From an uncultured virus (IMG/VR IMGVR_UViG_2061766007_000892) (lineage: Duplodnaviria > Heunggongvirae > Uroviricota > Caudoviricetes), in the IMG/VR virus record IMGVR_UViG_2061766007_000892: 63,982 nt of DNA; one strand, given 5' to 3'. Position numbers and translations under genes: made by a program. This document shows positions 19,524 to 55,787 of this stretch, in pieces; the stretch's first letter is position 1; each line of letters starts with the position of its first letter. The notes under the pieces are model-generated. The model saw only the letters and a list, made by a program, of their open reading frames with translations. It searched no databases and was not told the origin of the DNA.

Positions 19524-21476
19524 ATGATGGAAAGCTTTTCACGTTCAACAACTGTTAATAGTGATATTAATACTAAAAATGATAATTCATGGAAAACTAT
19601 GGGCGATATTATATCAAGTACTATAAATAGTATTCCTGATGATAAATATGATGCACCAATTACTGCGGTNNNNNNNNNNNNNNNNNNNNNNNNNNNNNNN
19701 NNNNNNNNNNNNNNNNNNNNNNNNNNNNNNNNNNNNNNNNNNNNNNNNNNNNNNNNNNNNNNNNACTTATAAATTTCTTATAAATGATGAATCTTTCACA
19801 ATAGGCTATTTAAAATATAATCCGACGCAACTAAAATTACAATTTAAAGCATATCGTGCAAGCGGTCAAGGGACTCTAAAAGTTTATTGTAAAAGTCAAA
19901 CAGTCAACATTACTTATTATATAGGAGATATTCCTATTAGTTTTGACTCTCCTGCCAATGAAGAACAATTTAAACAATATACTGATAAAATTAATATACA
20001 GCTTTCAAAAAAATCAAATGATATTAATAATTATACTTTACAGATTATAAATGCAGAAACTTCAGAAGAGATATATTCAGAAGGGATAAGTTCAGACGAT
20101 TTTAATGATAATATATATAATAAGTNNNNNNNNNNTAAAAATATTTTTAAATTCACGATATTCAATAAGTTCCATTAATTATTATCCTCCATTATTAGAT
20201 CCTTTCCTTTTGGATACTCATCTGAAACATATCTCCAAATAAAACCATAAGATGATTTTCCTTCTTGCCTACATACTCTAGCAATACATCCATGAGTTTT
20301 ATTTAATGAACGCCCCGCTTCACAAACTGAAGGAAATGTTTGTATATATTTACCATTTAAATCATACTAATTTACTTCCTTACTACATCTTTTTAACGTG
20401 GCTTTGGCAACTGCTTGCCGTCTTTCTTCCTCTGCTTTCTATAATTTTTCTATTATTAAATTAACAGAAATATCATCAGTTTGAAATTTCCAAATATAAT
20501 TTTTAGAAGTATGATGTTTCTAACAAGCTTCTGAAATAGCACTTCTAGAAGTATTCACTGCTCGGGCGGCCGCACCTTCTGAAAAATAAATATTTAATAA
20601 ATTTCCATTTAAATCATACTGCTCAACCGTTTTACAATCTGGCTATAAAATATTTTTTTCTTCTTGTGTTAAATATCCTAATCCAGCAGAGTGTAAAATA
20701 TCAGTAATAGTAATTTTATTTACACTAAACAATTCACATAACTCTTGTATTTTTAAGCCACTATTAAAAAGTGTTATAACTTCAGTTGGGTTTGTCTTAG
20801 GAGTTCCTTGGCCTCCCGGAGTTTGATTATATCCTTTTAGGCNNNNNNNNNNNNNNNNNNNNNNNNNNNNNNNNNNNNNTCAATAATAGAAAATTTAAAA
20901 TTTTCTACTCCATATTTACGTATTGCTCTATATAGTGGATAGTTATAGCTTACTAGTAAGGGATAAAAAGCTAATCTTTTATGATCTTTCCATCTAGTTT
21001 CAATGTGAATTGACTAACCTATATAATTTTTATGATTAACTAAATTTTCAATTCTATAAATACCTATCATATTAACCACCCGCTCGTTTATTATAACCAT
21101 ATTCTTGAGTTTTAAAGNNNNNNNNNNNNNNNNNNNNNNNNNNNNNNNATTCACCTAATTTATCTTTTTCGCAGTAAATTATTGATTCAATTGTCCAATT
21201 CCAGAAGCCAGTTTTTAAAATTTCATGATGAACTGCTTGGTCTGAAATTGTAGATAATCCAATCGAACTTTTAAAATGGTCTGAAATTCTTTTTTTAACA
21301 TTNNNNNNNNNNATTATTCTGCTGTTAATACAACTTCTAATGTTAGTCTATATATAATGCCAAAAGATTCATCTGAAAATCCAGATGCTGAAATTAACAT
21401 AGGGGTAGGATCTGGTTCTACAGTGGTTAGAGGAGTTTTAATTTTAGAATATACTACAAATGATAATAATCCTTAA
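19524..21476 (+). CDS. Putative tail/baseplate-associated protein (gapped; interrupted by a misplaced contig at 20136-21302)
   Basis: AAGGAG RBS then ATG at 19524. Open frames at 19524-19669 and 19765-20125. A + strand C-terminal piece (...YSAVNTTSNVSLYIMPKDSSENPDAEINIGVGSGSTVVRGVLILEYTTNDNNP*) ends TAA at 21474-21476. Confidence 0.4.
20175..21070 (-). CDS. GIY-YIG homing endonuclease with two NUMOD1-like repeats; five in-frame TAG codons (missed by the ORF track)
   Basis: Manual translation: MIGIYRIENLVNHKNYIG(TAG)SIHIETRWKDH...YPLYRAIRKYGVENFKF...GYNQTPGG...VEQYDLNGNLLNIYFSEGAAARAV...VN(TAG)YDLNGKYIQTFPSVCEAGRSL...YGFIWRY. No in-frame TAA/TGA until 20175-20177, which overlaps the next ATG. 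Confidence 0.88.
21072..21302 (-). CDS. Allelic C-terminal fragment of the 24227-25246 GIY-YIG protein
   Basis: NVKKRISDHFKSSIGLSTISDQAVHHEILKTGFWNWTIESIIYCEKDKLGE...FKTQEYGYNKRAGG* matches NVKKRIADHFKSSIGIKTIADQAVHREIWKTGFWNWTIEIIIYCEKEQLNE...FKSQEFGYNKNVGGGG*. Confidence 0.85.
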   Translation of the reverse strand, partial: NVKKRISDHFKSSIGLSTISDQAVHHEILKTGFWNWTIESIIYCEKDKLGEXXXXXXXXXXXFKTQEYGYNKRAGG

Positions 21477-21563
21477 AAATAAANNNNNNNNNNNNNNNNN
21501 NNNNNNNNNNNNNNNNNNNNNNNNNNNNNNNNNNNNNNNNNNNNNNNNNNNNNNNNNNNNNNN

Positions 21564-21881
21564 ATCCAAATTTAACTTATCAACATTAATCTCAACTGTA
21601 GTATTCAACAAATCAACCATTGCCTCATTGCATTCTTTTGCCTTATCTTGTTGAATAATAACATTGCCTTCGTCAGTTTGCTTATAATTTCCATCTTCAT
21701 CTCTTTCGGCATACATCTCAATAATTTTACGACGAGATTCATCAAAGGTAGCATTTTCCTTATCTAACTCTCTAATCAATCTGGCAACCCTAAAAGCAGT
21801 CTTAACGGGTAATACCTTCATACTAATTTCTCTAAAAATAGAAATACTATTTAAAATATCATTTAAAGTAACCTGAATCAT
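21564..21881 (-). CDS. Hypothetical phage protein (3' end in gap)
   Basis: Helical ORF MIQVTLNDILNS...KIIEMYAERDEDG, with an ATGA overlap on the ruvC stop. Confidence 0.6.
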
Positions 21882-22621
21882 ATATCTTCACCCCAAGTTG
21901 AGTTTTTATTTTTTATTACACTACAAAAATATTTGCCAATACAAATAGCATCTGCTTCATCTTGTGTACATTTTTGTTTATACCATAGTTCAACTTTTTC
22001 TTGAGCTTGACGCTTTTTGTTTTCACGACCTTTTCCATCGCCCACACCGCAATATTTTCGCCATTCGCTTGAATAGCATAGGACATGGTCAATACATTTT
22101 TCAAATAAAGTATCAACTAATACCCCTTGTAAATTAGCAAGCACCCGATACATTTCAACTTGGTATTTTCCATTACTGCCAAAAGACTGTAATTGAATAT
22201 TTTCAATTCCTACAAAATCGGGTTCCCAAGCATCAAGTGCGGCTGCAAGCCAATGTTTTATCTCATTAATACGTTCTGTAGATTCTTTGGTTTCATCTGC
22301 ATGATAAGTTCCATAACTAACTAATGTCCCATTATCATAGATAGAATAACCAGTAATTTTAGTCGCGGCATCAAGTGCCAAGATTCTATGCGTGTCAATC
22401 GTTTTGATTGGCACCTTATTTTTTTTGACTTTATAAGGGTCGCCCGCAAGACATTGTTCACACACTGGATGTTTTCTCCATTGCCCATAACTCATGAATT
22501 GCGTATGACCTTCTGGACACCTCATTTCTAATTCTGTATTTAAGTTTTTATAAGAAGCGCTAATCAGTTTCCAACCTTCTTCTTCAAGATGATTGGAAAC
22601 TGAATAGATATTTATTGCCAT
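21878..22621 (-). CDS. ruvC: RuvC-like Holliday junction resolvase with N-terminal Zn-binding domain
   Basis: RNase H-fold catalytic pattern RILALDAATKITGYS...VGIENIQ...WRKYCG...DEADAICIG; N-terminal CPEGH...CEQC. Confidence 0.8.
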   Translation of the reverse strand: MAINIYSVSNHLEEEGWKLISASYKNLNTELEMRCPEGHTQFMSYGQWRKHPVCEQCLAGDPYKVKKNKVPIKTIDTHRILALDAATKITGYSIYDNGTLVSYGTYHADETKESTERINEIKHWLAAALDAWEPDFVGIENIQLQSFGSNGKYQVEMYRVLANLQGVLVDTLFEKCIDHVLCYSSEWRKYCGVGDGKGRENKKRQAQEKVELWYKQKCTQDEADAICIGKYFCSVIKNKNSTWGEDI

Positions 22622-22624
22622 GAA

Positions 22625-23437
22625 TTACTTACCGGTGGAACCAAATCCTCCTTCCCCACGGTCACTAGCAGGTAGAATATCAACTACATCAGCCTTAAAC
22701 TTGTAGGAAGGCATAACAAGCATTTGTGCCACACGGTCTCCAGACTTAATTTGATAATCAGAATCAGAAAGATTGTCATATAGAACACCAAGTTGGCCGC
22801 GATACTCACTATCAATAATACCAACACTATTTGATAGACGATTCTGCGTCTTGGCTCCAATACTGGAGCGTGGGAAAATCATTGCCATCCAGCCCTCTGG
22901 AAGAGCAATATGTACACCAGTTTTAACCATATTACTAAAGCTGTGCGCTGGAAGTACCATATCGTCCGCGGCATAAAGGTCGGCGCAAGCATCGGTTTTA
23001 TGCGCATAAGTAGGAACAGTCGCACCATCATCCAGCTTAATTGGAAGAACGATATTATAATTATGATAACATTCTAGCGCAGCATCAAAAATGTCATAGA
23101 AAATTGAGAAAATACTTTCAAGAATCTGGCGCTTATTAGCAGAAGGTTTTAGTTCATCAATTGCTTCCTTAATAGCCATCTTTGAAGACTCAATATTCTC
23201 ATGTACGGCCTCACGAGTAAGTCCTTCTTCCTCAAAATTCTTAATCATCTCATTAATAGAAGCATTACGAATCTTATCAGTAAATGCTCCAGAAATCATA
23301 CCAATCATAACATCAATACTTTCATTATTTAAACTATCTTCTGGAATAGCCATAATCTGCTCAATGGCATCCATAATAGGCTGCAAATTTTCATCATTAG
23401 ATACCATATCTGCGAAATTTGTAAAGTTATTTTCCAT
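22625..23437 (-). CDS. dut: Trimeric dUTPase with ~125-aa acidic N-terminal extension
   Basis: Motifs ACADL, PRSSIG, GIIDSEYRG, RVAQML and RGEGGFGSTG. Confidence 0.95.
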   Translation of the reverse strand: MENNFTNFADMVSNDENLQPIMDAIEQIMAIPEDSLNNESIDVMIGMISGAFTDKIRNASINEMIKNFEEEGLTREAVHENIESSKMAIKEAIDELKPSANKRQILESIFSIFYDIFDAALECYHNYNIVLPIKLDDGATVPTYAHKTDACADLYAADDMVLPAHSFSNMVKTGVHIALPEGWMAMIFPRSSIGAKTQNRLSNSVGIIDSEYRGQLGVLYDNLSDSDYQIKSGDRVAQMLVMPSYKFKADVVDILPASDRGEGGFGSTGK

Positions 23438-23450
23438 AGTTATTGTCTCC

Positions 23451-23657
23451 TTATTCAGTAAAAGTTCTCTCCACTGTTACGATAGCCCAACTATCAATAA
23501 TTTCGCCCTTGGATTTCTTATTCTTTAGAACATAGCCTGACTTAGTTAGAGAGTAACCTTCTGTATTTTGATTATTCTTATATTCTTCAATTAGGCGAAC
23601 AGCCTCTTCTTCATCTTCAACACGAAAAGTGTCAACTGTCTTCAGTAGCATCTTCAT
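23451..23657 (-). CDS. Hypothetical protein
   Basis: Operonic ORF (MKMLLKTVDTFRVEDEEEA...) with an AGGAG RBS. Confidence 0.6.
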   Translation of the reverse strand: MKMLLKTVDTFRVEDEEEAVRLIEEYKNNQNTEGYSLTKSGYVLKNKKSKGEIIDSWAIVTVERTFTE

Positions 23658-23940
23658 AATTTTCATTCTCCTTTTTCTCATTTAGTTCTCGTAGTTGTTC
23701 AATTAGGTTTATATAATTAAGCTTTTTAGCTGTCTCTGAAATAGAACCCATACTAGCGCGCCCTCGTTTGCCAAGTTTTTTTGCTAATGCTCTTCGTTCA
23801 GCGCGATTTCTAGGTTGATATTGCGTTTTTTCTTCCATTTGTTGTGCTACGGTAGTTTCAATTTCTTCTAAATTTATCGGATCTTCTTTATCAGTAGTTA
23901 ATCCAGTCACAAAAATTTCTTTATTTGTTTCTGTATTCAT
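23632..23940 (-). CDS. Hypothetical protein
   Basis: Operonic ORF containing PRNRAERRA, with an ATGA overlap. Confidence 0.6.
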   Translation of the reverse strand: MNTETNKEIFVTGLTTDKEDPINLEEIETTVAQQMEEKTQYQPRNRAERRALAKKLGKRGRASMGSISETAKKLNYINLIEQLRELNEKKENENYEDATEDS

Positions 23941-24227
23941 AATAAATCCTCCACTACCGTTTTAATTAAATCATATGCTTTTTCAGTATCTACTTGAATA
24001 ATGGAGAATACTTTATTATTTTCTCTTTCAATAAGAGGAATATGCACAGTGACATGGCGGTTTAAAACAAATTTTGTAATATGAGAAAATCCGTCTATGT
24101 CTACTTCCTCGCTTTCGCTATCTATAAACAATGCATTTGTAAGAGCGTATAAAACATATAATTTTTCTTCTTCTTTATATAAAATAACTATATATTTTGA
24201 ATTACCTTCATACTTAATAATTTCCAT
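23937..24227 (-). CDS. Hypothetical protein
   Basis: TAATG overlap with the upstream gene. A probable allelic start (MELIEYREFKNIF) is at 20136-20175. Confidence 0.6.
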   Translation of the reverse strand: MEIIKYEGNSKYIVILYKEEEKLYVLYALTNALFIDSESEEVDIDGFSHITKFVLNRHVTVHIPLIERENNKVFSIIQVDTEKAYDLIKTVVEDLL

Positions 24228-25246
24228 TATCCACCGCCACCTACATTTTTATTATATCCAAATTCTTGGCTTTTAAAGAAATCTATATAATATTTTTCTA
24301 ATTCATTTAATTGTTCTTTTTCACAATAGATAATTATTTCAATTGTCCAATTCCAAAAACCAGTTTTCCATATTTCACGGTGTACTGCTTGGTCTGCGAT
24401 TGTTTTTATACCAATTGAACTTTTAAAATGATCGGCAATTCGTTTCTTAACATTGGTACTTTTACCAATATAGCATTTTCCAGTATCAATATTTGTGATT
24501 TTATAAATGCCGGGTTTATCTTCTATTCCGACCCGTTTAAAAGTTCCATCTATATAAGGTTTCACATATTCAGCCCACACAAGTTTATTTATAATATCAG
24601 GATGCTGAACTTTTTGTGAAACAGTAGTAATTAGAAAACTTATATCTTCTTTATATTCATCAGGAACTTGTATTGTATAAAATAAGCGTTCCTGTTGCTC
24701 CATTTCATATTGTCTTAAAGGAAGTAAAAGCCCTTCAAAACGTTCTTGTTGTGCGCGAGTCTCTGCTAGAATATTTTCTTGGCTTTCGCGCGCGGCATCA
24801 ATCACTGACTGGGTTTCTTGACAAAATTTATGTTCTCGTTCTAATTCATCACGCTCAAATTGAGCATATTTAGATTTTAAATTTTCTTCTTTCTCACGCC
24901 ACAATCGTTCAAAATCTGTATCCATTTCTGACTGGCGCGTAAGTTTTTGATTTTCAAAATATAAGTCTAAATCTGTCGTTTTCTTATTTAATTCTCGTTT
25001 ATACTTATTTTGAATTTCAATTAATTTATCATTATATTCACTAACTAAATTAGTTTGTGTTTTAATATCTTTTGTTAATTCATCTTTTTGAAAACGAAGT
25101 TTTTCAACTCTTCCTTCTGCATCAGAGATTTCTTTTTTATAAACTTCTAATTGCTTATTATCAATTGAAATTTTTTGTCCTAGTTTTACACCTAGTATAA
25201 TTATTATAATTGTAAGTATTCCTATTATTCCATATAACATCTACAT
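24227..25246 (-). CDS. Membrane-anchored coiled-coil protein with C-terminal GIY-YIG nuclease domain
   Basis: N-terminal hydrophobic helix (LYGIIGILTIIIIILGV), long coiled coil, then PGIYKITN...CYIGKS...RIADH...LEKYYI...GYN. RBS spacing favours the ATG at 25246, which is followed by TAG. Confidence 0.8.
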
Positions 25247-25273
25247 CACAACCACTCCTTTACTTTACAATTA

Positions 25274-25302
25274 ATTATATCATGGTTTTTTGAAAAAGTC
25301 AA
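25274..25302 (-). promoter_or_regulatory. sigmaA-type promoter
   Basis: TTGACT-17 bp-TATAAT with TG extension. Confidence 0.8.
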
Positions 25303-25311
25303 GTAATCTAC

Positions 25312-25590
25312 TTAATTGGTTAATATTACATAAGCGTGGTAATATCCATCATTTTGCTGCTGATATGGATTAGGAATAGGAGCAAACTTTTTTAAAACAC
25401 TATTGGATGAATTAAGCCAAACGCAATATTCTTTTTGATATTTATTTAACAAATAATTTGTAATGGTTTTACTTTCATTAGACATAAAATCTTTATACCA
25501 AATTTCAAAAACTGGTTCTTTTCTCTTGCCCTTGAAATATAAAAAGGTATATTGAGTATAATTTATAGGAAATTGAATAATTTCACACAT
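25312..25590 (-). CDS. Hypothetical protein, paralog of 25645-25917
   Basis: MCEIIQFPINY...FLYF...PVFEIW...PIPNPY...YHAYVI. Confidence 0.65.
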   Translation of the reverse strand: MCEIIQFPINYTQYTFLYFKGKRKEPVFEIWYKDFMSNESKTITNYLLNKYQKEYCVWLNSSNSVLKKFAPIPNPYQQQNDGYYHAYVILTN

Positions 25591-25644
25591 AAGATTGCTT
25601 TCTTTCTTAACATATTTTAAAAACCAAGTATTTATATTATTTAT

Positions 25645-25917
25645 TTAAGCTAATGTAATAATAATATAAGCATGAAATTTATTATCTTTTTGTCTAATAT
25701 AAGGACATGGCACAGGTTGAAACTGTTTTTTTACTGTAGAAATTAATCCATAATTAATTTTAGCCTGTTTAATTTTATTTAAAATTAAACAAATGTTAAA
25801 TAGTTCTTCTTTAGTATTACCCCAAACTTCAAAAATAGGCCGTTTTTTATCATTGGCTATAAAATAAAGAAAACGATAATTAACATTTTCAATGGGTAAT
25901 TGAATAATTTCGCACAT
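25645..25917 (-). CDS. Hypothetical protein, paralog of 25312-25590
   Basis: MCEIIQLPIEN...FLYF...PIFEVW...PVPCPY...FHAYII; AAAGGA RBS. Confidence 0.65.
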   Translation of the reverse strand: MCEIIQLPIENVNYRFLYFIANDKKRPIFEVWGNTKEELFNICLILNKIKQAKINYGLISTVKKQFQPVPCPYIRQKDNKFHAYIIITLA

Positions 25918-25942
25918 AAAATAAATTCCTTTCTTTTTCTTT

Positions 25943-25971
25943 ATTATATCATAAATTAAAATATTTGTCAA
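25943..25971 (-). promoter_or_regulatory. sigmaA-type promoter
   Basis: TTGACA-17 bp-TATAAT with TG extension. Confidence 0.85.
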
Positions 25972-26000
25972 AAAGAAAAGAGCGGGCTTAGCCCGCTCTT
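25970..26000 (-). terminator. Intrinsic terminator
   Basis: AAGAGCGGGC-TAA-GCCCGCTCTT hairpin followed by a T-rich run on the minus strand. Confidence 0.8.
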
Positions 26001-26154
26001 ACTTTTTAATATCCATTCCTAACTTAATAGAGTTAATAAACCAATAAATCATTATAAATAATGCCGCACTTTTATTATTAACTAATAACGTGAAATTAGT
26101 CGCGGCCACAAGAAATAAAAGAATGGATAAAATTAAACTAATTTTCTTTTTCAT
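25999..26154 (-). CDS. Small membrane protein (51 aa)
   Basis: MKKKISLILSILLFLVAATNFTLLVNNKSAALFIMIYWFINSIKLGMDIKK*; overlaps the nrdG end. Confidence 0.5.
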   Translation of the reverse strand: MKKKISLILSILLFLVAATNFTLLVNNKSAALFIMIYWFINSIKLGMDIKK

Positions 26155-26626
26155 GCAAATAAATCACCCTTTGATTTGAAGAACCACGTAATGGTAATGT
26201 AATATCTCGTTTATCTTGTTCATAACGACCATCAATAATACAATCAGTATGTTTAAAAATCATATTAATAATTTCGTCTCCTTCTTCAAATAGTTCTTCA
26301 ATAGTATATCCAGTCCAAATATATATTTTCATTTGTGGATAAATTTTGCGGCAAATGCTAATTAAATCATATACCGCCTTGCGATTTTCAGGACAAAGTG
26401 GTTCGCCGCCAAGAATGGAAAGTCTACGTTCAACTCCATTTTTTCTTAGTTTCGTAAGTATTTCACGAATGGTTTCTGGAGTAAACTCTTCTCCAAAATT
26501 AAAGTCTTGTGCTTCTGGATTCTGACAACCGGGGCAATGGAAGTGACATCCAGAAAAATAGACCGACAGGGAGATACCAGGCGCTGCCGCGGTATCGTCC
26601 CAATAGATTCCAGCAATTTTACTCAT
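26138..26626 (-). CDS. nrdG: Anaerobic ribonucleotide reductase activase (radical SAM)
   Basis: GCHFHCPGCQNP, LSILGGEPL, IWTGY, DGRY, RGSSNQR. Ends in TAG, or at TAA 26096-26098 if read through. Confidence 0.93.
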   Translation of the reverse strand: MSKIAGIYWDDTAAAPGISLSVYFSGCHFHCPGCQNPEAQDFNFGEEFTPETIREILTKLRKNGVERRLSILGGEPLCPENRKAVYDLISICRKIYPQMKIYIWTGYTIEELFEEGDEIINMIFKHTDCIIDGRYEQDKRDITLPLRGSSNQRVIYLHEKEN

Positions 26627-26628
26627 AG

Positions 26629-27224
26629 TTAATGAACGTGCTTTACACGTGCTTCTGTTTCTTTTTGTTTGCCCCAATTAAACGCGGTTTTATAATCGCC
26701 GGTAAGATAACCCGTTACGCGACGTAAATGCTGAATATTATGACTGCCGCACTGTGGGCAGGTATCATTAATTTCATCAGCGTAACCACAATCCATACAT
26801 GTATCAAGAGGTACATTTACAGCAAAATATGGAATGTCGTGGTCCATCGCATAATTAACAATAGTTTCAAGTGCTTCAAGATTGTTTTTTACACCAGAAG
26901 GTAATTCTACATAAGTAATACATCCGGCACTGGAATACCCTGTAAGTTCGCTCTCAATATCAATTTTATCAAACACAGAAATATCATGCCATACAGGAAC
27001 ATGGATACTGTTGGTAAAATATTCGTGGTCACTTACTTTTTCAATTTCGCCATACTTCTTTTGGAACTTCTTCATAGCGGTGTAGCATAGATTCTCTGCG
27101 GGAGTATAATACACGCCGAAGTTTAACTTATACTCTTTCTTAAATTCAGCACATCTATCTTTAAATAACTGTTCAATTTGCTTTGCTAATTTCATTCCTT
27201 TTTCGGTAGTATGGTCGCAGCCAA
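26629..27224 (-). CDS. nrdD: NrdD C-terminal fragment (allele 1)
   Basis: YYTPAENLC, YFTNS, CMDCG...CPQCG, and the glycyl-radical motif RRVTGYL. Confidence 0.9.
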
Positions 27225-27235
27225 NNNNNNNNNNT

Positions 27236-27379
27236 TACCTCACTAAAAGCATCAGATGGAGTATAAATAGCACGATAATCTATACAATCTTCTGCATAAT
27301 CAACATCTTTTTCATCATACATAAAATTCCATGGGCATTCGTGCTTTTCTATTTTCCATCTACATTCATTACAAGTCAT
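27236..27379 (-). CDS. Small Cys-containing hypothetical protein
   Basis: MTCNECRWKIEKHECPWNF...DCIDY, immediately after the stop of the second nrdD allele. Confidence 0.45.
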
Positions 27380-27380
27380 T

Positions 27381-29034
27381 TTAATGAATATGCTTAACGC
27401 GGTCTTCAGTTTCTTTTTGCTTGCCCCAATTAAATGCATCTTTATAAGAACCGGTTAAGTATCCAGTGACACGACGTAAATGAGAGATATTATGTCCTCC
27501 ACATTGTGGGCAGGTATCATTCATTTCATCTTGATAGCCGCAATCGTTACAATTATCTAGTGGTACATTTAATGCAAAGTAAGGAATATCTTTATCCATA
27601 GCATAATTGACAATAGTTTCAAGGGCGTCAATATTATTTTTTACGCCAGACGGAACCTCAACATATGTAATACAGCCAGCACTTGAATATCCGGTTAATT
27701 GTGCTTCTATATCAATCTTATCAAAAATTGAAATTTCATGCCATACTGGAACATGAATACTATTTGTAAAATATTCACGATCAGATACATTAGGAATTTC
27801 GCCGTATTTTGCTTTAAATTTTTTCATTGCAGTATAGCATAAGTTTTCCGCGGGAGTATAATATACTCCGAAATTTAATTTATATTCTTTTTTAAATTCT
27901 GCACATCTATCTTTAAATAGCTGTTCAATACGCTTTGCTAATTCCATTCCTTTTTCAGTGGTATGATCACAGCCAATTAAAATTTGTAGAGTTTCAGCTA
28001 AACCTAATTGTCCAATAACAATTGTGCCATGTTTTAAAGCTGAACGAATACCTTCTTCTGGATGATAGCCAAGCATTGTCCCATTTTCATACATAAATTT
28101 TGCTGATGAAGGAGATTGAGAACAAATCCAATCAAAACGTTCAAGTAACATATCTTTGGCTTCATGAATTTTTTGATCTAAGCTGCGTAAAAAGTAATTA
28201 ATTAAATCTTCTTCAATGTCCCATCCTTGTGGATTATTAGAATTTAATTTTGCTTCCATAGCAATAGTTGGCATAATAATTGTAACAGGGCAAATATTGC
28301 CGCGGCCATCCTTTGTTTGAGGATTAGTACCTTCTTCAGCATTAATATCAGCACCGTTCGCAGTCCTACATCCCATTGTGGAGAAGTAAGTTTTAGGGTC
28401 ATTTACATCATAACCAGCATTACCAGACCAATCAACATTAGCGTAATTTGGATAAATACGTTTTGCAGTTGATTCTAATGCTAACCTAAATAAATCATAA
28501 TTTGGATCGCCAGGCTCACGATTCACGCCCTTCATACATTGAAAAATACCACAAGGGAAAATAGGAGTTTTATGAAATTTTCCTACTCCTTTAATTGAAC
28601 CTTCAAGTAATGCTTTTGTTACCATGCGACCTTCGGGCAATGTACAAGTTCCATAGTTAATAGATGTGAAAGGTAGCTGATTTCCGCTTCTAGATTGAAG
28701 TGTATTGAGATTATGATACATACCCTCAACTGCCTATTGTAATTCACGTTCGGTCATATCCATAGCGTATTTATATGCTTTTGTACATAATTTTGCGGTT
28801 TTGACTAATGATACTGTTTCAGAATTAACAGTTGGATTAATATAATCATCAATAGGTTGACGTGCAGTATCAATTCCATATAAAAAATGATCGCTGCCAC
28901 TATTATCAATGTATTCTAATCCATCTTTAAAATGTTTCCAGAAACTTTTTCTAACATAGGGCACCATAGTCCAATCTAAATGCGTAGCTGAAACACCACC
29001 AAATTGCATCAAAGATTGTAGCTGGAAAATAACT
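27381..29034 (-). CDS. nrdD: NrdD middle + C-terminal part (allele 2) with in-frame TAG at 28734-28736
   Basis: Continuous frame VIFQLQSLMQFGG...ERELQ(TAG)AVEGMYHNLNTLQSRSGNQLPFTS...MGCRT...RRVTGYL...KHIH*. Confidence 0.92.
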
Positions 29035-29044
29035 NNNNNNNNNN

Positions 29045-30671
29045 AGTGCTAATGTTCCATGCTTTAAAGCAGAACGAATACCTTCTTCTGGATGATAACC
29101 CAACATAGTCCCGTTTTCATACATAAACTTTGCTGATGCGGGGCTTTGGCCGCAAATCCACTCAAAGCGTTCTAGTAACATATCTTTGGCTTCGTGGATT
29201 TTTCTATCTAAAATTTTTAAGAAAATTTCTTCAATCGGGTCTTGACAACCATTCTCTACATCTTGTTTTGCTAACATAGCAAGTGTAGGCATAATAATTG
29301 TAACTGGACAAATATTACCACGACCATCCTTGGTTTGAGGATTAGTACCGGGCTCAGTATTTATATCTCCTAAATTTGCAGTTCTACAGCCCATTGTGGA
29401 AAAATAGGTGCGAGGATCATTTATATCATATCCTGCTGCATTACTCCAATCAACATTTGCATAATTGGGATAAATTCTTTTTGCAGTAGATTCTAGCGCC
29501 AATTTAAATAAATCATAATTAGGATCTCCTGGCTTACGATTTACACCTTTCATACATTGGAAAATACCGCAAGGGAAGATAGGAGTTTTATGTAACTTTC
29601 CTACGCCCTTAATAGAACCTTCAAGTAATGCTTTAATAACCATACGACCTTCTGGTAATATGCAGGTTCCATAGTTAATAGAAGTGAATGGAAGCTGGTT
29701 GCCACTACGGGATTGCAAAGTATTTAAATTATGATACATTCCTTCTACTGCTTGCTGGAGTTCGCGCTCTGTCATTTCCATCGCATATTTATAAGCTTTT
29801 GTTACTTTTGCAGTTTGCACTAAAGGAAGCACATTTTCGTCAACTGTTAAATTATGATAAGGTTCAATAGGCATTCTAGAAATATCTACATTTAAGAAAT
29901 AATGATTTTCATTACCTTCTTCAAACCATTTTAGTCCTTCTTTAAAATGTTTCCNNNNNNNNNNNNNNNNNNNNNNNGCACCATAGTCCAATCTAAATGA
30001 GTTGCGGAAACACCGCCAAACTGCATCAATGATTGAAGCTGAAAAATAACAGCAACAAGCTGGAAAGCAGTATTAATGGAATTAGCTGGCCGCACATCAG
30101 TTTGTCTAGTATTAAAACCCTCTGCTAATAACTTATCAAAAGGAATAGATAAGCAATTGTGCATACCAACCGCATAAGCACTTAAATCATGAATATAAAT
30201 TTCATTATTTAAATGATTATTTCGTGCCATATCAGACATACAGAAATCAAGTGCATATTGCTTCATCATTTCATCTGATGCTTCGCCCACGCGGCCACCA
30301 AATGAATGTTCATCTACATTAGCATTTTGATTTTGAACATTTTTTGCTTGTAATTTTTCGCTAATTGAACGAATAAATTCATCAGAACAAGCTCTCATAA
30401 CTCCTCGTTTATAGCGATATTTTATATAAGCTTTGGCAACTAATCTATCATAATCAGTTAAATAATCTTCAACTAATTCTTGAATTTGTTCTACAGTTAA
30501 TGGCTCATCAAACTATGAAGCGACTTCATATACTAAATCTGCGATTTCATAAGCATATTCTGGAGTCTCATTTGTAAAATTAACGTCATTATTTGCTTTA
30601 GTGATAGCATTTATTATACGTTGTTTATCAAATTCTACTATGTCTCCATTTCTTTTAATTATATTTATCAT
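29045..30671 (-). CDS. nrdD: NrdD ATP-cone/N-terminal and middle part with in-frame TAG at 30513-30515
   Basis: GGAGG RBS, then MINIIKRNGDIVEFDKQRIINAI...VAS(TAG)FDEPLTVEQIQELVEDYL...AKAYIKYR...YIHDL...ERELQQAVEG...MGCRT...KHGTLA. Confidence 0.9.
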
Positions 30672-30782
30672 AAAAAGCCTCCTATACTAATCCGCCAGTT
30701 TTATAATGAAAACCGCAATACGGACAAGTATTATTTTTTATTAAAGAATAATCTGTACAATGCGGACACTAGCTTTGATTGA
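30655..30782 (-). CDS. Allelic fragment of the small Zn-finger protein, with two in-frame TAGs
   Basis: NQS(TAG)CPHCTDYSLIKNNTCPYCGFHYKTGGLV(TAG)EAFYDKYN* versus the allele NQKHCPH...TCPYCGFHFSTGGIWRENEND*. Confidence 0.7.
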
Positions 30783-30792
30783 NNNNNNNNNN

Positions 30793-31260
30793 CTTCGCCA
30801 TTTCCGACATACAGAAGTCAAGAGCATACTGCTTCATCATTTCATCTGATGCTTCACCTACGCGGCCACCAAAAGAATGCTCGTCAACATTAGCATTTTG
30901 ATTTTGAACATTAGAAGCGGTTAGTTTCTCACTAATAGAACGGATGAATTCATCAGAGCAAGAACGCATTACGCCTCTCTTATAGCGATAACGAATATAT
31001 GCTTTTTCTACGAGGCGGTCAAAAGCCGCTAAATCATCTTCAACTAATTCTTGAATATTTTCAACAGTAAGATATTTTCCACTATCTGTAAAAGTTTGAT
31101 TAGCTACACGTTCAATACTATCTGCAATAATAGTAAAATATTCCGGCTCATCGCGTGTAGAGTCATTATAAACTTGAATCCAAGCTTTTCTAATGGCATT
31201 TATAATTTTAGATTTATCAAAATCAACTTCTGAGCCATTTCTCTTAATGACCTTAATCAT
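30793..31260 (-). CDS. nrdD: NrdD ATP-cone N-terminal fragment (other allele)
   Basis: MIKVIKRNGSEVDFDKSKIINAI...TVENIQELVE...KAYIRYR...NQNANVDEHSFGGR. Confidence 0.9.
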
Positions 31261-31473
31261 TTTCGTTTTCCCTCCAAATGCCGCCAGTGCTAAAATGAAA
31301 ACCACAATAAGGGCAAGTATCATTTGTAATTTCCCAATTATACTTTGTGCTCGTATGCGGGCAATGCTTTTGATTATCAATAATGGCGAGCTTTATTTTT
31401 TGTANNNNNNNNNNNNNNTTCTTAATTCTTTATTAAGCTGTTCACGAGTTTGAATAATATCATCAATCCTCAT
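31253..31473 (-). CDS. Small Zn-finger protein (CPH...CPYCG)
   Basis: MRIDDIIQTREQLNKEL...IIDNQKHCPH...TCPYCGFHF; overlaps both neighbours. Confidence 0.6.
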
Positions 31474-32517
31474 ATTCTCCACCTTCCTCCTTTCGCAACC
31501 ATCTCGTGAGACTGTGTAAATAAGTCTTTTGCTGATGGATAAAATTTTAATAATAATTCTCGTTCATCCATTGCTGGATTTTTCTTTTTAGTATTTATTC
31601 TATCATTTAGAATTATTGAATAGTTATCTTTTCTGGTTACATCCGCCCACCGTTCAATGCGAATAGATAAATTCGCCAATGGATTTTTATACCCTATAAA
31701 TGGTGGTTCATATAAAATTTTTATTGGTATATCAACGCTCCAAAGACAGTATAATAAATTCATTTTATNNNNNNNNNNNNNNNNNNNNNNNNNNNNNNNN
31801 NNNNNNACATTAGAATAAGGAGTAATATCGGCTTTTAAATAATTTTTATATTTATTAGTCATATAATATACTTCATCTAATGGTATATCTAAATCAAATA
31901 TAATTGTATTTGAACGAGTCATTTTAGGATAATTTCTTATTTCAAAAAACTCGGATAACTTTTTACAAATAATNNNNNNNNNNATGGTTTTCTATTACTA
32001 ATATCCTCTAATATGTCGCGCCAATTTGGATAGAAAAATTCGCGGTCATACATTATTAATCGTTTGTTTGACATGATAGGCGGAACTGGTAACTTCTCTT
32101 CGCNNNNNNNNNNNNNNNNNNNNNNNTATTATCTAATACATTAGAGATAACTTTTGCTTTTATACCGTCATCATATTTTCCTTTTAAATATTCTTTATAG
32201 ATTGCTGGCCGCGGAATAGTAAAGTCTATAATTGAGTTTTCAAATGGAATATATTTTCCATTTGTAAAAGCTGTGCCTCCATATTCTACGACAGGCGAGC
32301 GTAAGAACTGCTCTGGTATTTTTGGAACCGCATGTCCTTCACTGAAAAAGTAAATCTTTTCATATCCAGACAAATCTTCTTCATCCAAAGACAACAATCT
32401 ACAAAACCGATTTTCTTCGGTTTTGTAGTAAGTTGCCAGTTTCATTATCTCAAGATTAGGTATGATGAACTTGGAGGAAGAAAAATTTGATATATCATAA
32501 TCAACTAGTCCTATCAT
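31470..32517 (-). CDS. Hypothetical protein resembling the N-terminus of phage radical-SAM-associated proteins (one gapped gene)
   Basis: MIGLVDYD...PNLEIMKLATYYK...YEKIYFFS...YGGTAF. The frame continues across gaps (EEKLPVPPIMSNKRLIMYDREFFYPNWRDILEDI...) into ORF 31470-31922. Confidence 0.45.
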
Positions 32518-35500
32518 TCTTCTACCTCCGCGCGCTCATATTGGAAAGTTAAGTTTCCATATTCATCTACATTTGTTATCTTTGAAATAATCGGATAGAT
32601 TGATTGTTTCTTTTTCTTGGGGATGAAATCATTTCCGCGGCGAATACCTTGAACCATTAATTTTGTTCCGCGCGCAAACCAACTCTTTTCAATGACATGC
32701 TTTTTACCGTCATCTCCACGCTGACTTAATTGCTTATCATAAATCGCATACTGATTTTTATAAATTTTTACATTCACAACGCCAGTCGGGGTTAAGAGCG
32801 TAACTGTATTACGATTCTTATCTTTATCAATTACAGTTCCAATGATTTTGAATAACTTATATACCTTTATTTCTTGACCATTACTTCCAGGAAAACTATA
32901 CTCAATTTCAGGTTCTTCTGATAATTTGAAGAAATCATCAAAATCATTCTTGGCTTTTGCTAATTCATGCTCATGATAGTAGAATGAGATACTATCCATT
33001 TCCCACTTACTAATATTACCATCAGCATACTTATCAGCAATTTCATCGTATAAAGCCTTATTTAACTTTGCCAATGCTTCTTCTTTATTATCTTTTAAAT
33101 ACTGACGCATTGGCTCCATGGCTTTCTTATAAACATTATCCCAAGTTTTTTGTAAAACTCTTGTGCCGTCTTCAACTATATCTATATCAANNNNNNNNNN
33201 NNNNNNNNNNNNNNNNNNNCATAATAAATTCCATCTTTACAAGTCTTTAAAAACTTATTAAATGAGAATAACTTTGCATAGAATTGCATATCAGTTGGTA
33301 TCTGATTTTTCGCAATTAACATTGACATATTTTGAAGAGTCAATCTTTGCTTCTTATCTGCAATCATGTCAATATATTTTGCCATGATTTCTTCACGCGG
33401 AATATTCTCAATATTATCAAATGCGCCAGACTTAATTAAATTTATCATTTGAAGTTTATTCACCTTAATTTTCATTAAGAAATCCTTCAATGACTCATAT
33501 GGTCGCATAGCCATAATTTCATTAATCTTGTCTGTGGAGACGCGAGTGATGCCGCGTAACCCATAAAGAATAACATTATCTTTTGCGACAGGTGTAAATG
33601 TAAAAGAAGATTGGTTGATGTCAGGTGGAGATACTTTAATTCCATAATCGCCCATTTTACCAATAATTGAGGCGATGCGTCCATAGTCAACAACTTTGTT
33701 CTTTTTCTTTTTCTTATCTGCCGTTGCTTCAGTTGTTTCTTCATTTGCTTCTTCCCATTCTTCTTCGTCAGATTCTTCTTCATATTCTACACTGTTTTCA
33801 GTAAGAATTGCTTGAATCTCATCTTCATCTTCTTCATCAACATCTTCGANNNNNNNNNNNNNNNNNNATTCGCTGTGTTCCAATACACAATTGGATACCT
33901 ATATGCTAAATTCATTTCTTGAAGAGCAATAATGGAATAAGCATAAGTATGACTCGCATTAAAACCATATCCGCGGCTTAATGCAATTTGAATATCCCAG
34001 ACATAATGACAAAATCTTTTACTAAGATTCTTTTCATCTACTCGTTCATAAAATTCTTTGGTTAGTTGCTCATATTCTTTTGGGTTCTTCTTCGCAATAC
34101 TTTTACGAAGTCTATCAGCCCATTGTAAGTCCCAGCCGCCGCATTCGGGTAGCTGAACCAATTTCATAAATTGCTCCTGTGTAATTGACAAACCGTCCGA
34201 AACATCTAATTGCTCATGAAGCAATTCTCGTTCCTTATTTGAAAGACCATACTGAATCATTTCAGTTTCCCAATCATTAGGATGCTTACGAAAACGAGCA
34301 TATTTATCTAGTGGTGCTTCTGCACCTTTTTCTGATGCCATAAGACGAATAACCGAGTTTAAAGTTGCTAAGTCGTCAACATTTTTTGGATGAGTTAATG
34401 AAATTCCACGAATACCACTTGCCTTTTCCATCTGAAAAAGACTTACAATCTTATGTTCATCTACTAACTTCCACATATCTTCATCATCACGAAGAATGTT
34501 ATATACGCCCAATGCCTTTTCATATGTTTCGCGTAAAGTCGGATACTTTTCAATATATCCGTCTTTAATTAACATTTCAAGACATGTTTGGATTTTATCT
34601 GCGGCTTCAACTGATAGAAGGTCCATTTTAATTTCTGAAACATCTTCCAAATCATGAAGCTCAAACTGAGTAATAATTGTTCCATCAGGTGCGCGCATAA
34701 GTGCGCTAGATTCTGTGAAATCTTTATCTTTAAATACTACACCGCCAGCATGAATACCGTATCCACAAATTAGACCTTCAATTTTACTGGCAACTTCCCA
34801 TAGTTTATCATACTTATTTATTTCTTCTACAAATGTTGGATTAGGTTTAATACCGTTTTCTTCATCACCATAATACATTTGATGCAATGTATATGCTTGT
34901 CCACGTTCTTGTGTAACCAAAGAAGAAATATATTGCGCGTTATCTACATCAATTCCTAATCCACGACACGCTGTAAGAATTGCTGATTTAGACTTTTCTA
35001 GTTTGAATGTTGCTACATTTGATACTCTATTCTCACCATAATATTTTCTCAAATGCTCCAATACCTGCGCACGCTTAATACCAGAAATATCTACATCAAT
35101 ATCAAGAACAGACACACGCGCAGGATTAAGGAAACGCCAAGGATACATGGCTGTCTTTTCGCGCAAAGCATTAATTTGAATAATGTCTAACGCATATAGA
35201 AGTAAAAATCCGCCACCAGAACCACGCGCGGGCATAACTAATGTTCCAGCATTCCAACATTCATCAATAATCTTTTGAAGGTTAAGGAAATAGGCTGACC
35301 ATCTTGCCTTATTTACTTCGCTTGATTCCCATGTCATTTCAAGACATTCGTTTAATGCATTATATGCTCGTTCATTCTGTAAATCTCTATGTCTCTCAGT
35401 TCCATCTAATACGGCCCACGATAAAATATTATCAGCATTATATTGAGAATATACAAATTTTTCAAGGGCTGGCATTTGCTTAATGCCCCATAAAATTCTT

Positions 35501-49842: not shown

Positions 49843-50850
49843 GTTGACTTATCAATTTCTTCTAATTGAGTTTCAATAAAAATTTGTAAATTATCTAATC
49901 TTTCTTGAACCTCTTTTTTGGTTAAATTTGCATGTTGCGTTGTAACAAATTTTGTTATTTCTGGATTATTAAAAATTTTTTTAATATGTAATTGACTAAC
50001 ATCATAGTTTTTTAATANNNNNNNNNNNNNNNNNNNNNNNNNNNNNNNNNNNNNNNNNNNNNNNNTTGTTTCTTTATTAAATAAATCAAAAATTCGTTTA
50101 TAAGTATTTTTAATATCACTTAATGTAGTGATATTAATTTCACTCATCTTAGCTGAAAGATTTTTAGGAGCTAAGTCACATGGGCCAAAATTTTCAAGAA
50201 AAGCTAAGCGTACTAAGNNNNNNNNNNNNNNNNNNNNNNNNNNNNNNNNNNNNNNNNNNNNNNNNNNNNNNNNNNNNNNNNNNNNNNNNNNNNNNNNNNN
50301 NNNNNNNNNNNNNNNNNNNNNNNNNNNNNNNNNNNNNNNNNNNNNNNNNACTTTCTAAAAAGAAGAGCAAGAGCATCATCAGATACATTTGAATATTCTG
50401 CCATAGTAATATACGTATTAAGAATATAATTTTGGCAAGTTTCGGTTAAATCTTCAAAGAAAATTTTANNNNNNNNNNNNNNNNNNNNNNNNNNNNNNNN
50501 NNNNNNNNNNNNNNNNNNNNNNNNNNNNNNNNNNNNNNNNNNNNNNNNNNNNNNNNNNNNNNNNNNNNNNNNNNNNNNTGCCTAATATTCTAAATAAAGT
50601 TGTAAATCTTTGTTTCCCGTCAAAAATAGACATTGTTCTTTCTTTAATAACTGCATGAACTTCAGGAATTCTATCTCCATTTAAAATTGTATCCCATAAT
50701 TCTNNNNNNNNNNNNNNNNNNNNNNNNNAGATTCAAATCAACTTCTCCCTTTTTATATCTATCAAAAAGATAATCTAAATCTACAGTATTAGTTCTATAA
50801 GTATATCCTGCCCCATTTTTAATAATATAATCTTTATAATTATTTTCCAT
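49843..50850 (-). CDS. DUF262 (ParB-like, GmrSD N-terminal type) domain protein, gapped
   Basis: Reframed across gaps: ...YKKGEVDLN...ELWDTILNGDRIPEVHAV...SIFDGKQRFTTLFRIL...FEDLTETCQNYILNTYITMAEY...DDALALLFRK. It continues into the segment the ORF track fused to GyrB. Confidence 0.7.
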
Positions 50851-51082
50851 CAATAATTCTCCTTTATATTTTATATTCAAGCATCCCTAATCTTCACCCA
50901 GCCTTCATTTTTATTGGCTTNNNNNNNNNNNNNNNNNNNNNNNNNNNNNNNNNNNNNNNNNNNNNNNNNNNNNNNNNNNNNNNNNAAATTGTTGCGCCAT
51001 TACGCTAATATTTGCGTATATATTACTTGGCATAATATTTCCATACCAAAGTAATTCTTTTCCACATTTATCACAAAAATAT

Positions 51083-51271
51083 TTAATCATCTTTANNNNN
51101 NNNNNGCCAACCAGAAGGAATATCACCTTCTGGTTTGTGATAAATCATTTCTTTATTTGGATATTCAAATAACATAATTTCAAAAATAGGATTAGGAACA
51201 TTACCATTTTTGTCTTTATATTTTTCTTGATACCATTTTACATAATCTAATATTTCTTGATATTTAGACAT
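51083..51271 (-). CDS. Hypothetical protein
   Basis: Short operonic ORF with an RBS. Confidence 0.45.
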   Translation of the reverse strand: MSKYQEILDYVKWYQEKYKDKNGNVPNPIFEIMLFEYPNKEMIYHKPEGDIPSGWXXXXKDD

Positions 51272-51281
51272 AATTACCCCT

Positions 51282-51746
51282 TTATGTTAATACTGTTTCA
51301 CACTCTTTATGCTGATAAAGTAATAAAGTTGGATCAAGAATAACTTCAGCAATCTTTTTAATACTCTCATAAAGATTCTTTTTATTTGAGTTCCAAAAAT
51401 GAGAACATCCGCAAAAAGTCATTAAAGAAGTTGTTTCTTCTGTAATTTGAATAACATAAACGACTTTTTTCTTCGCAAAAGCGTACCCTTGTTCCCAATT
51501 TGTACCGGCTGTACTATGTCTTCCAAGACTAATCATTAGAAAAACATCACAATTATCAATTGCCTCTACATCTTTCCAAAATACTTGCGCACCCCAATTT
51601 TCTTGTGACATATGCCAAGCATCTTCAATTTTAAGTTCCCAAGGGCAATAAACCTCAAAGCTCGGTTCATGGCGAAGCCATCCAGCAATATTCATCATGG
51701 TTGTGCGATTTTCAGTATCACAGGGGCCAGCAAGATAGATTTTCAT
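51282..51746 (-). CDS. Nucleoside 2-deoxyribosyltransferase-like protein (NDT/RCL family)
   Basis: KIYLAGP, VYCPWE, DVEAIDNCD, GTNWEQGYAFA. Confidence 0.82.
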   Translation of the reverse strand: MKIYLAGPCDTENRTTMMNIAGWLRHEPSFEVYCPWELKIEDAWHMSQENWGAQVFWKDVEAIDNCDVFLMISLGRHSTAGTNWEQGYAFAKKKVVYVIQITEETTSLMTFCGCSHFWNSNKKNLYESIKKIAEVILDPTLLLYQHKECETVLT

Positions 51747-54684: not shown

Positions 54685-54713
54685 ATTATAACATAAATTT
54701 TAAAATGTGTCAA
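54685..54713 (-). promoter_or_regulatory. sigmaA-type promoter
   Basis: TTGACA-17 bp-TATAAT with TG extension. Confidence 0.8.
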
Positions 54714-54754
54714 ATATTTTGCGCGAATGCGTCATATTTTTTTCTATATAAAGT

Positions 54755-54967
54755 TTATTTTCCATAACAAAAATTCTCCATATCTTGTATTAATTTTAAT
54801 GATGGTGTTGTTCGTTTGTTTATAACTTTATTTAAATGCGAACGAGTAATTTCTAATTTATCTGCCGCTTCCTGTTGGCTCATTCCTATGTCTCTTAATT
54901 TTTGTTTAAAATCTGTAAATAATTTATTNNNNNNNNNNNNNNNCACCATAAGAAATAATCCTATCAT
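54755..54967 (-). CDS. XRE-family HTH regulator
   Basis: LRDIGMSQQEAADKLEITRSHLNKVINKRTTPS. Confidence 0.8.
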   Translation of the reverse strand: MIGLFLMVXXXXXNKLFTDFKQKLRDIGMSQQEAADKLEITRSHLNKVINKRTTPSLKLIQDMENFCYGK

Positions 54968-54996
54968 AAGGTAGGTATTATTTCTAATTTATTTTT

Positions 54997-55215
54997 TTAA
55001 ACATTTTCTTCAATTTCTTTAATTTCACATTCACTCATATATGGAAAATAAATAATATTATCTGCATGGCCATCTATTCTATCTGCTATTTCATATAATG
55101 AATCTTTTATATGATGTTTGGCTTCATCTGGTAAATATCCTTCTTCAATTAATGAGTCGTAATATTCCTGTTCATCTGCAATAAAGGCAAAACGTATTGA
55201 TACTTTATATTTCAT
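54997..55215 (-). CDS. Hypothetical protein
   Basis: Tightly packed operonic ORF. Confidence 0.5.
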   Translation of the reverse strand: MKYKVSIRFAFIADEQEYYDSLIEEGYLPDEAKHHIKDSLYEIADRIDGHADNIIYFPYMSECEIKEIEENV

Positions 55216-55216
55216 A

Positions 55217-55405
55217 TTATCTTTCTGGAAAGTATTTCTTCCATTCCTTTCTTGAAATTTGTAATCCTCTTCTTAGCATATATTGTGCTCGCGCATAATT
55301 TTTCTTTCTAACTCGTTTCTTTTTATGCCAACAAGCACGCTGATAAGTTTTATTAAACATGATAATTGTTTTCATATGTTTTTCATCAAATTTCAATCTG
55401 GACAC
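55217..55405 (-). CDS. Small basic hypothetical protein
   Basis: HKKKRVRKKN motif; operonic. Confidence 0.5.
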   Translation of the reverse strand: MSRLKFDEKHMKTIIMFNKTYQRACWHKKKRVRKKNYARAQYMLRRGLQISRKEWKKYFPER

Positions 55406-55602
55406 TTCCTATTTGGAAATTTTAATTCATTTATTTGATAATAAATTTTTTTAAAGCATCCTATACAAATATCGCTTTTATTTTCAGATAAAATTATATC
55501 TCCATTATAATTGCGTTCAGGTAATATCATTTGATAAAAATTATCATAATTTTTATGTTGTTCTCTGCCGCAAATATCACAATATCTAATTGTTTTAATC
55601 AT
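55393..55602 (-). CDS. Small Zn-ribbon protein
   Basis: CDICG...DICIGC. Confidence 0.6.
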   Translation of the reverse strand: MIKTIRYCDICGREQHKNYDNFYQMILPERNYNGDIILSENKSDICIGCFKKIYYQINELKFPNRKCPD

Positions 55603-55787
55603 TTGATTTCATTCCTTTTTTCAATTAAAATCTTCATATTTTCATAATCTAATTGCCAAGGCCAATATAAACTAGCGTTTTTACAATCTTTTACATGAGG
55701 ATGATGACAACCATCTATTTCAAAATATTTACAATGCGTATTGCCACAAGTCTCTGCTAAATAAGAATATTCATGCTATTGTATCAT
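55599..55787 (-). CDS. Small Cys/His-rich protein with TAG at codon 4 (missed by the ORF track)
   Basis: Promoter plus AAAGGA RBS, then MIQ(TAG)HEYSYLAETCGNTHCKYFEIDGCHHPHVKDCKNASLYWPWQLDYENMKILIEKRNEIK*. Its stop forms an ATGA overlap with the next gene. Confidence 0.65.

Follow-up and report, generated by a model that had tools for sequence, protein, structure and literature searches.

The window, by which we mean the whole stretch of 63,982 nucleotides (nt) from an uncultured virus (IMG/VR record IMGVR_UViG_2061766007_000892), carries several minus-strand genes that contain TAG codons in frame, among them a homing-endonuclease gene and parts of nrdD. The original prediction was that the phage as a whole is recoded and reads TAG as glutamine (Gln). 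This claim is not supported: the backbone of the window behaves as standard-code DNA, and the main phage uses the standard code (code 11), in which TAG is an ordinary, rarely used stop. Comparison with homologs indicates that Gln is the correct reading of TAG in the DNA that bears these codons, and TAG-to-Gln recoding (code 15) is real in the clade. The explanation that we favor, with a probability of roughly 0.7, is that known recoding was mis-assigned to this phage via a strain-chimeric scaffold, which combines a standard-code backbone (strain alpha) with alleles of one or more recoded, co-occurring relatives.

All 11 TAG positions named in the original prediction read CTA on the plus strand, that is, TAG on the minus strand, and nine of them lie in frame in recognizable coding sequence. 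Five are in the endonuclease gene (21014, 20643, 20520, 20439, and 20367). The two that had been assigned to nrdD belong to separate alleles, one to an allele that we call C (28734) and the other to an N-terminal allele (30513). The remaining two (30769 and 30682) are indeed in frame, and what had been described as a Zn-finger allele is the C-terminal part of a conserved small Zn-ribbon open reading frame (ORF) upstream of nrdD. All nine codons are confined to three pieces, 20136-21302, 27235-29034, and 30320-30782. When interior TAGs were counted only if at least 40 codons were open on both sides and the frame was not nested in another gene, none passed outside these three pieces, and the clustering is far from chance. 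As an independent re-assembly we used Logan contigs from two runs (X1 and X2) of one sample, which may be the source of the window; they hold 98% of the sampled words of 20136-30000. Over 20136-20842 and 30320-30782 these contigs show no other letters; thus, the TAGs there are not consensus errors.

The three arguments for Gln in the original prediction hold where the homolog columns are informative. The column of 28734 is Gln in all 80 relatives (61 CAA and 19 CAG), and that of 20367 is Gln in 24 of 26 aligned homologs. The column of 21014 is mixed (of 17 homologs, 7 have Gln, 6 have Leu, and one has TAG itself), and the other four testable TAG columns are variable or gapped. The two N-free parts of the endonuclease contain no TAA or TGA beside the five TAGs, and coding density in its piece rises from 0.037 to 0.784 when TAG is treated as sense.

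The other two positions, 25241 and 55776, do not qualify as sense codons for Gln. Position 25241 is leader sequence, flanked by the Shine-Dalgarno sequence and the start codon ATG of a backbone gene (24227-25240, minus strand) that encodes a transmembrane helix, a coiled coil, and a C-terminal GIY-YIG domain. The leader, AAGGAG-N5-GTGATG-TAG-ATG, is the same letter for letter in four of the four closest relatives, two of which are complete genomes without a transfer RNA (tRNA) with the anticodon CUA. The gene itself has no TAG, and its homologs in the recoded relatives G002, L004, and L005 have 8 to 12. Around the leader (25230-25320, minus strand), a sigma-70-like promoter (TTGACT ... TATAAT), the Shine-Dalgarno sequence, and a GTG-ATG-TAG mini-frame directly before the ATG are kept in four relatives; the mini-frame may be a leader mini-ORF. 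Position 55776 is codon 4 of a 62-codon Cys/His-rich backbone ORF (55600-55787, minus strand) that is preceded by a Shine-Dalgarno sequence of its own and overlaps the next gene at ATGA. Its 92%-identical homolog in the standard-code relative G007 has TGG (Trp) at this codon, and the TAG is probably a nonsense change in the backbone (TGG to TAG) and not a Gln codon.

The backbone was examined for the code that it uses. Its structural/tail module (1-20125, plus strand), which encodes tape-measure-like and tail proteins with the Pfam domains PhageMin_Tail and Prophage_tail, spans about 6,300 codons with no in-frame TAG, although TAG is common in the other frames. Among the 15 N-free segments of this module, 13 have a frame that is fully open under code 11 and free of TAG, and the other two hold a gene boundary; in close relatives, tail-module ORFs of more than 4,000 codons likewise have no TAG. 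Elsewhere in the backbone TAG serves as a stop. The observation that nearly all gene ends are TAA or TGA is correct for 25 of the 27 backbone ORFs of at least 100 amino acids whose last 30 codons are N-free (15 TAA and 10 TGA), and the remaining two end in TAG. One of these two is the activase gene nrdG (26138-26677, minus strand; Pfam Fer4_12 and Radical_SAM), which stops with TAG at 26138. Its four closest homologs (77-96% identical in amino acids) stop with TAA one codon earlier, and read-through would add 14 residues that are absent from every close homolog. The other (40982-41479, minus strand) stops at a TAG that shares letters with the AGGAG of the following gene, which encodes a DnaB-like helicase.

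This second stop is kept in G001, an unmasked relative of 29,241 nt that is about 92% identical to window positions 39107-63982: its ORF 26846-27343 ends in TAG, and the next ORF begins 10 nt on. The whole of G001 can be tiled with ORFs under code 11; 39 of these end in a stop, which is TAG in four of them. Re-calling with TAG as sense hardly changed coding density in the window's backbone (from 0.929 to 0.946) or in G001 (from 0.739 to 0.741); in the recoded relative G002 density rose from 0.385 to 0.691. The closest relatives, G007 and G009 (both complete by estimate) and G008, carry 19 to 31 tRNAs, including Gln-CUG and Gln-UUG, and no tRNA-CUA was found in these three genomes even when introns were allowed. 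The 63,982-nt window itself has no tRNA; in G001, tRNA-Gln(UUG) lies about 3.7 kilobases (kb) past the position of the window's right end. Because the structural module has no TAG, TAG is used as a stop, coding density is flat, and the closest relatives lack tRNA-CUA, recoding of the whole phage is not supported.

The arrangement of the TAG-bearing pieces points to their origin. The window contains seven runs of exactly 10 N. Synteny with relatives breaks at six of them; the exception (31974-31983) is colinear with relatives, in which the true gap is 23 nt. The TAG-bearing stretches fall in blocks bounded by such runs (20136-21302, 27235-29034, and 29045-30782). The 23 other N-runs that are bridged by relatives are all colinear with them, without a single breakpoint. 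At 20126-20135, which is probably a scaffold gap, only one flank matches any relative; at 21303-21312 and 27225-27234 only the left flank matches relatives (14 and 73 loci, respectively), and at 30783-30792 only the right flank does (49 loci). The flanks of the run at 29035-29044 are about 1,000 nt apart and in the wrong order in five of the five relatives shown.

Between these runs, nrdD is present as partial copies, all on the minus strand. The 5' end, A (30793-31404, ATP-cone), and the 3' end, D (26629-27224, NRDD profile positions 384-562 and Gly_radical), are native to the backbone, being 88-95% and 90-93% identical in nucleotides to the closest relatives, respectively; A has no TAG. Between them lie allele C with a small downstream ORF (piece P1, 27235-29034; NRDD profile 96-562 and Gly_radical, with the TAG at 28734), a middle part, B-mid (29045-29954; NRDD profile 124-357, no TAG), a conserved node common to the alleles (29955-30300), and an alternative 5' arm (30320-30782) comprising the C-terminal part of the Zn-ribbon ORF and the nrdD N-terminus (ATP-cone and NRDD 2-115). 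In all relatives the small Zn-ribbon ORF lies upstream of nrdD; thus, the arm duplicates backbone positions 30793-31375. The ATP-cone, NRDD, and glycyl-radical domains of NrdD are all present, but they are colinear only along contig paths and not in window order. The closest relatives, in which nrdD is present once, match window positions 33000-30793 at 88-97% and 27224-21700 at 80-93% nucleotide identity, whereas the 3.6 kb between these flanks is only 79-86% identical to any relative. The closest relative of allele C is L004 (91% identical in amino acids), which is TAG-recoded.

The re-assembly resolves these copies into colinear paths. Logan contigs were placed on window positions 19500-32500, and uncovered stretches (for example, 21236-24273 in X1) were not counted as evidence. 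Contigs from both runs (X1 record 3, 3,677 nt; X2 record 10, 5,351 nt) join 27224 to 29045 with 38 letters between. D is thus connected directly to B-mid, which gives a colinear full-length nrdD that skips allele C, and B-mid is contiguous with D and the backbone. A second joint, from 29034 to 30052 (side 161), links C at its start with the matching point in the N-terminal part, so that C is an alternative arm; allele C is an alternative allele and not a tandem copy. The arm at 30320-30782 sits on its own 474-nt contig (X1 record 5), and in another sample, X3, a joint from 30218 to 30793 ties A to the shared node. Summed contig depth in the node bin (29916-30349) is 24 to 30, compared with 6 to 10 for the arms. 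At the endonuclease locus, a backbone contig (X2 record 7) runs from 21564 to 20125 through 1,082 other letters and bypasses the endonuclease piece, P0 (20136-21302). P0 is found on separate small contigs (1,325 and 841 nt) that run on, at their far ends, into sequence absent from the window, and the contigs that flank 20126-20135 (X1 records 1 and 2) both continue into sequence outside the window.

Metagenomic assembly is known to produce strain-chimeric scaffolds, with alternative alleles ("bubble arms") strung one after another. The window resembles such scaffolds in its partial, diverged, overlapping copies in N-to-C order, each bounded by N gaps, in the raised depth at a conserved node, and in the colinear single-copy paths of the independent assembly; it differs from them in that its junction sequences are masked. 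According to the favored explanation, the window would be a metagenomic scaffold whose backbone is a large phage with the standard code, strain alpha, and into which the assembly placed, at hypervariable loci, alternative alleles of at least one related, co-occurring phage, strain beta, in series and with N gaps between them. Strain beta would read TAG as Gln, like several complete relatives with a tRNA-CUA. The alpha path would run from A through the node and B-mid to D and the backbone, with no TAG, and the beta path from the Zn-ribbon ORF through the nrdD N-terminus and the node to C, with four TAGs. The pieces ascribed to beta would be the homing-endonuclease gene, the nrdD allele, and the nrdD 5' arm with the upstream Zn-ribbon ORF, although the endonuclease piece, with its five TAGs, probably comes either from beta or from another recoded strain.

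Several points weigh against this explanation. The arms and the backbone have a similar depth (about 6 to 10), so the strains are not separated by depth. The Logan contigs stem from the window's own sample and are an independent assembly but not independent data, and rare variants are dropped from them. The junctions themselves are hidden by N, and it cannot be proved that the 10-N runs are original scaffold gaps: they could be masks clipped at 10, and the run at 31974-31983 is colinear. We infer the phasing through the node and the assignment of the endonuclease to a recoded strain, and for the endonuclease neither a close relative nor a natural context was found in viral and metagenome contigs. 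The 10-N runs would have to be original gaps, all three pieces would presumably derive from one strain beta, and beta would carry a suppressor tRNA. Finally, that the backbone phage has no tRNA-CUA is deduced from relatives only, as its own tRNA array would lie beyond the window.

One alternative is that a single genome physically contains the pieces, a standard-code phage having taken up DNA of recoded relatives by homing or recombination. The result would be tandem partial nrdD copies and an endonuclease gene, all of which would either be cut short at TAG or depend for expression on a suppressor tRNA from another source, such as a recoded phage in the same cell. Homing endonucleases carry DNA from one co-infecting phage to another, the pieces are more diverged from any relative (79-86%) than their flanks are (88-97%), and the similar depth of pieces and backbone fits a single molecule. 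In addition, a preprint by Borges et al. describes a clade in which an intron endonuclease is preferentially recoded (10.1101/2021.08.26.457843). However, every junction in window order is an N-run that no contig supports, and the re-assembly gives the single-copy paths 27224 to 29045 and 29034 to 30052 and a backbone path without the endonuclease; we consider a single genome unlikely. An account that joins both ideas, in which a standard-code phage and a TAG=Gln sibling occurred at about equal abundance in one rumen-type sample, their nrdD node collapsed in assembly, and some of the pieces had truly recombined into the code-11 genome, likewise has only an outside chance of being correct.

It is distinctly improbable that the whole phage reads TAG as Gln, with a suppressor tRNA outside the window and few sense TAGs because recoding is at an early or light stage. 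The nine in-frame TAGs at Gln-compatible positions, the rarity of TAG as a stop (2 of 27 clean gene ends), and the existence of recoded members in the clade would all agree with this, as would a pattern in which low TAG use precedes recoding, as set out in the same study (10.1101/2021.08.26.457843). That study also names structural genes as the class that recoded phages load with TAG, and it is the structural module of the window that has none. Furthermore, TAG terminates nrdG where its homologs stop, coding density does not gain, the closest complete relatives lack tRNA-CUA, and the sole backbone candidates fail, one being in a leader (25241) and the other aligning to TGG (55776). Least probable of all, and very much so, is decay under the standard code, with the TAG-bearing genes as pseudogenes that acquired random nonsense mutations. 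CAG to TAG is a single transition, and 55776 does look like a nonsense change from TGG. On the other hand, over about 300 codons at 26% G+C the endonuclease has five TAGs but neither TAA nor TGA, both of which abound in the other frames; the arms show no other defects in N-free sequence; and in relatives the TAG-only pattern recurs alongside a tRNA-CUA.

With nrdD allele C as query, a search retrieved 80 loci from phages of about 100 to 430 kb, and in 10 of them nrdD has an in-frame TAG. Five of the 10 TAG columns in these relatives are Gln without exception in the others. Interior TAGs and TGAs were also counted crudely over the 80 loci; the count, inflated by spurious antisense ORFs, was too noisy to define code classes and served only as a pointer to L004, which was then checked directly and has seven and nine TAGs in two genes; L004 and L005 are both TAG-rich. 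The clearest recoded relative is G002, a complete genome of 166,678 nt that carries a tRNA-CUA and has 124 in-frame TAGs in one ORF of 4,348 codons, orthologous to the giant ORF of the backbone. TAG is abundant in its structural genes and nearly absent from its replication genes. At 174 TAG sites of G002 aligned to standard-code relatives, the majority residue was Gln at 65, Glu at 20, Lys at 15, Ser at 5, and Tyr at 1 (Gln makes up 3.9% of the background). A tRNA-CUA is also present in G004.

The tRNA-CUA genes of G002 (L114 8570-8659) and G004 (L118 529-616) are 88 to 90 nt long and have a long variable arm, a class-II shape as in Ser, Leu, and Tyr tRNAs; that of G002 ends in G-CCA. They are not close to other tRNAs of the same genome (50 to 61 identical positions of 90 to 91). 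This shape contrasts with the TAG columns, which favor Gln, and leaves charging with Gln unexplained. The tRNA arrays of relatives (L114, L116, and L151-L156) hold 12 to 31 tRNAs, several of which ARAGORN calls with introns of 44 to 854 nt, and in G005 one tRNA-like gene (L115 9355-9426) received an odd anticodon call of two bases.

Some relatives in the nrdD family (L020, L025, L037, L042, L063, L076, and L079) are rich in in-frame TGAs instead; by crude count, L025, L037, and L063 (records of 60 to 434 kb) have hundreds within 21 kb. L020 has a TGA at an invariant Trp column (78 of 78), and the TGA-rich relatives are likely members that read TGA as Trp. Gut phages that read TAG as Gln are described by Peters et al. 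(2022, PMC9523058), and gut-phage clades whose close relatives differ in code (standard, TAG, or TGA) by Borges et al. (10.1101/2021.08.26.457843). The case shares with code-15 gut phages the in-frame TAGs at conserved Gln columns, the phage-encoded tRNA-CUA of relatives, the concentration of TAG in structural genes and its scarcity in replication genes (in G002), a homing endonuclease with recoded stops, and a single gene family, of phages of 130 to 430 kb from ruminant gut samples, that holds standard, TAG-recoded, and TGA-recoded members. It differs in that the window's backbone is not in code 15; only short pieces are. The size range and cattle source of the clade resemble a named clade such as Agate, which is a lead only.

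Because TAG-to-Gln recoding and the mixing of codes among close gut-phage relatives have already been described, the relatives reported here only add new members. The lesson of the window is that in-frame stops in a few genes of a scaffold can stem from co-assembled recoded strains, and that code calls made from such genes lead to mis-annotation. The two cases can be separated genome-wide by structural genes, by stop ends compared with those of homologs, by coding density, and by the tRNA set of relatives. If the pieces had truly recombined, the locus would be a snapshot of gene flow across a genetic-code boundary, with code-15 homing-endonuclease and nrdD alleles landing in a code-11 genome; these alleles would be silenced at TAG unless a recoded co-infecting phage supplied a suppressor tRNA. 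Insertion would also make the locus bear on code difference as a recombination barrier between sibling phages.

Piece P0 (minus strand) holds the 3' end of a further allele of gene 24227-25240 (about 21080-21302) and, after it, the endonuclease gene (about 20175-21100). The profile matches comprise the catalytic domain and a DNA-binding module, as in GIY-YIG homing endonucleases: a GIY-YIG domain (E-value 7.6e-6, its N-terminal part only, the rest being masked) and two NUMOD1 stretches (E-value 3.1e-18), with the N-run at 20843-20879 interrupting the frame. The type is presumably that of the I-TevI/Seg-like enzymes. Like them, the gene occupies an intergenic site, here beside an allele of another gene with a GIY-YIG domain; it differs in its five in-frame TAGs, and its best homologs are 25-54% identical. 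Searches in viral contigs gave 16 loci with the best at 36% identity and no close relative, and a tblastn search of the relatives' loci gave at best 54% over 61 amino acids. In metagenome contigs, an exact 66-mer of the gene had no match, and the 31 related loci (the best 54% identical over a short segment) did not reveal a natural context. The partial allele in P0 (21080-21302) is a second copy of the 3' end of gene 24227-25240, and in other samples there are contigs that connect 20777 with 24282, suggestive of recombination between the ends of the GIY-YIG domains.

The window has about 31% G+C. In addition to the plus-strand tail/structural module (1-20125), the minus strand encodes a replication and nucleotide-metabolism module with RuvC-like, dUTPase, nrdD/nrdG, DnaE-type polymerase, RecJ-like, DnaB-like helicase, AAA_24, and gyrase A and B genes. 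A blastn search of 5.9 kb against an annotated phage collection gave one 152-nt match and no close named phage. A 39-mer from the left end of the window had no match in viral contigs, and the sole match there of a 37-mer from the right end was a 92% relative. Masking is extensive, with 65 N-runs and 3,531 N in all, and the lengths of the runs are not the true ones: all 23 bridged runs differ from unmasked relatives, by -353 to +710 nt, and where several relatives bridge one run the difference is nearly always the same. Frames can therefore be followed only within N-free sequence, which also limits the original prediction's description of the TAG-bearing genes as otherwise intact, and lists of ORFs that run through N-runs mislead. 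We rejected the idea that the runs mask low-complexity sequence, as the hidden sequence is ordinary in relatives. Frameshifts suggested by whole-window ORF lists in the endonuclease, DnaE (33787), tail genes, and nrdD were rejected because N-run lengths are untrue, and so were about 13 apparently TAG-terminated genes, 11 of 13 of which have an N-run within the last 30 codons. In the heavily masked region 50147-51282, four TAGs fall in one possible frame.

The DnaE-type polymerase (33095-36465, minus strand) shows PHP, DNA_pol3_alpha, and finger domains, with the C-terminal HHH_6 part in another frame across the N-run at 33850-33867. This run corresponds to 30 nt in relatives, compared with 18 to 20 in the window, and DnaE is probably one gene, neither split nor frameshifted. 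Similarly, the five and four apparent ORFs at 3-12136 and 13975-19521 (plus strand) are probably single giant genes that are cut only by masked runs. Giant tail-module ORFs in the relatives L145, L147, and L149 have at least 4,095, at least 4,622, and 3,374 codons, and others have 2,017 and 1,549.

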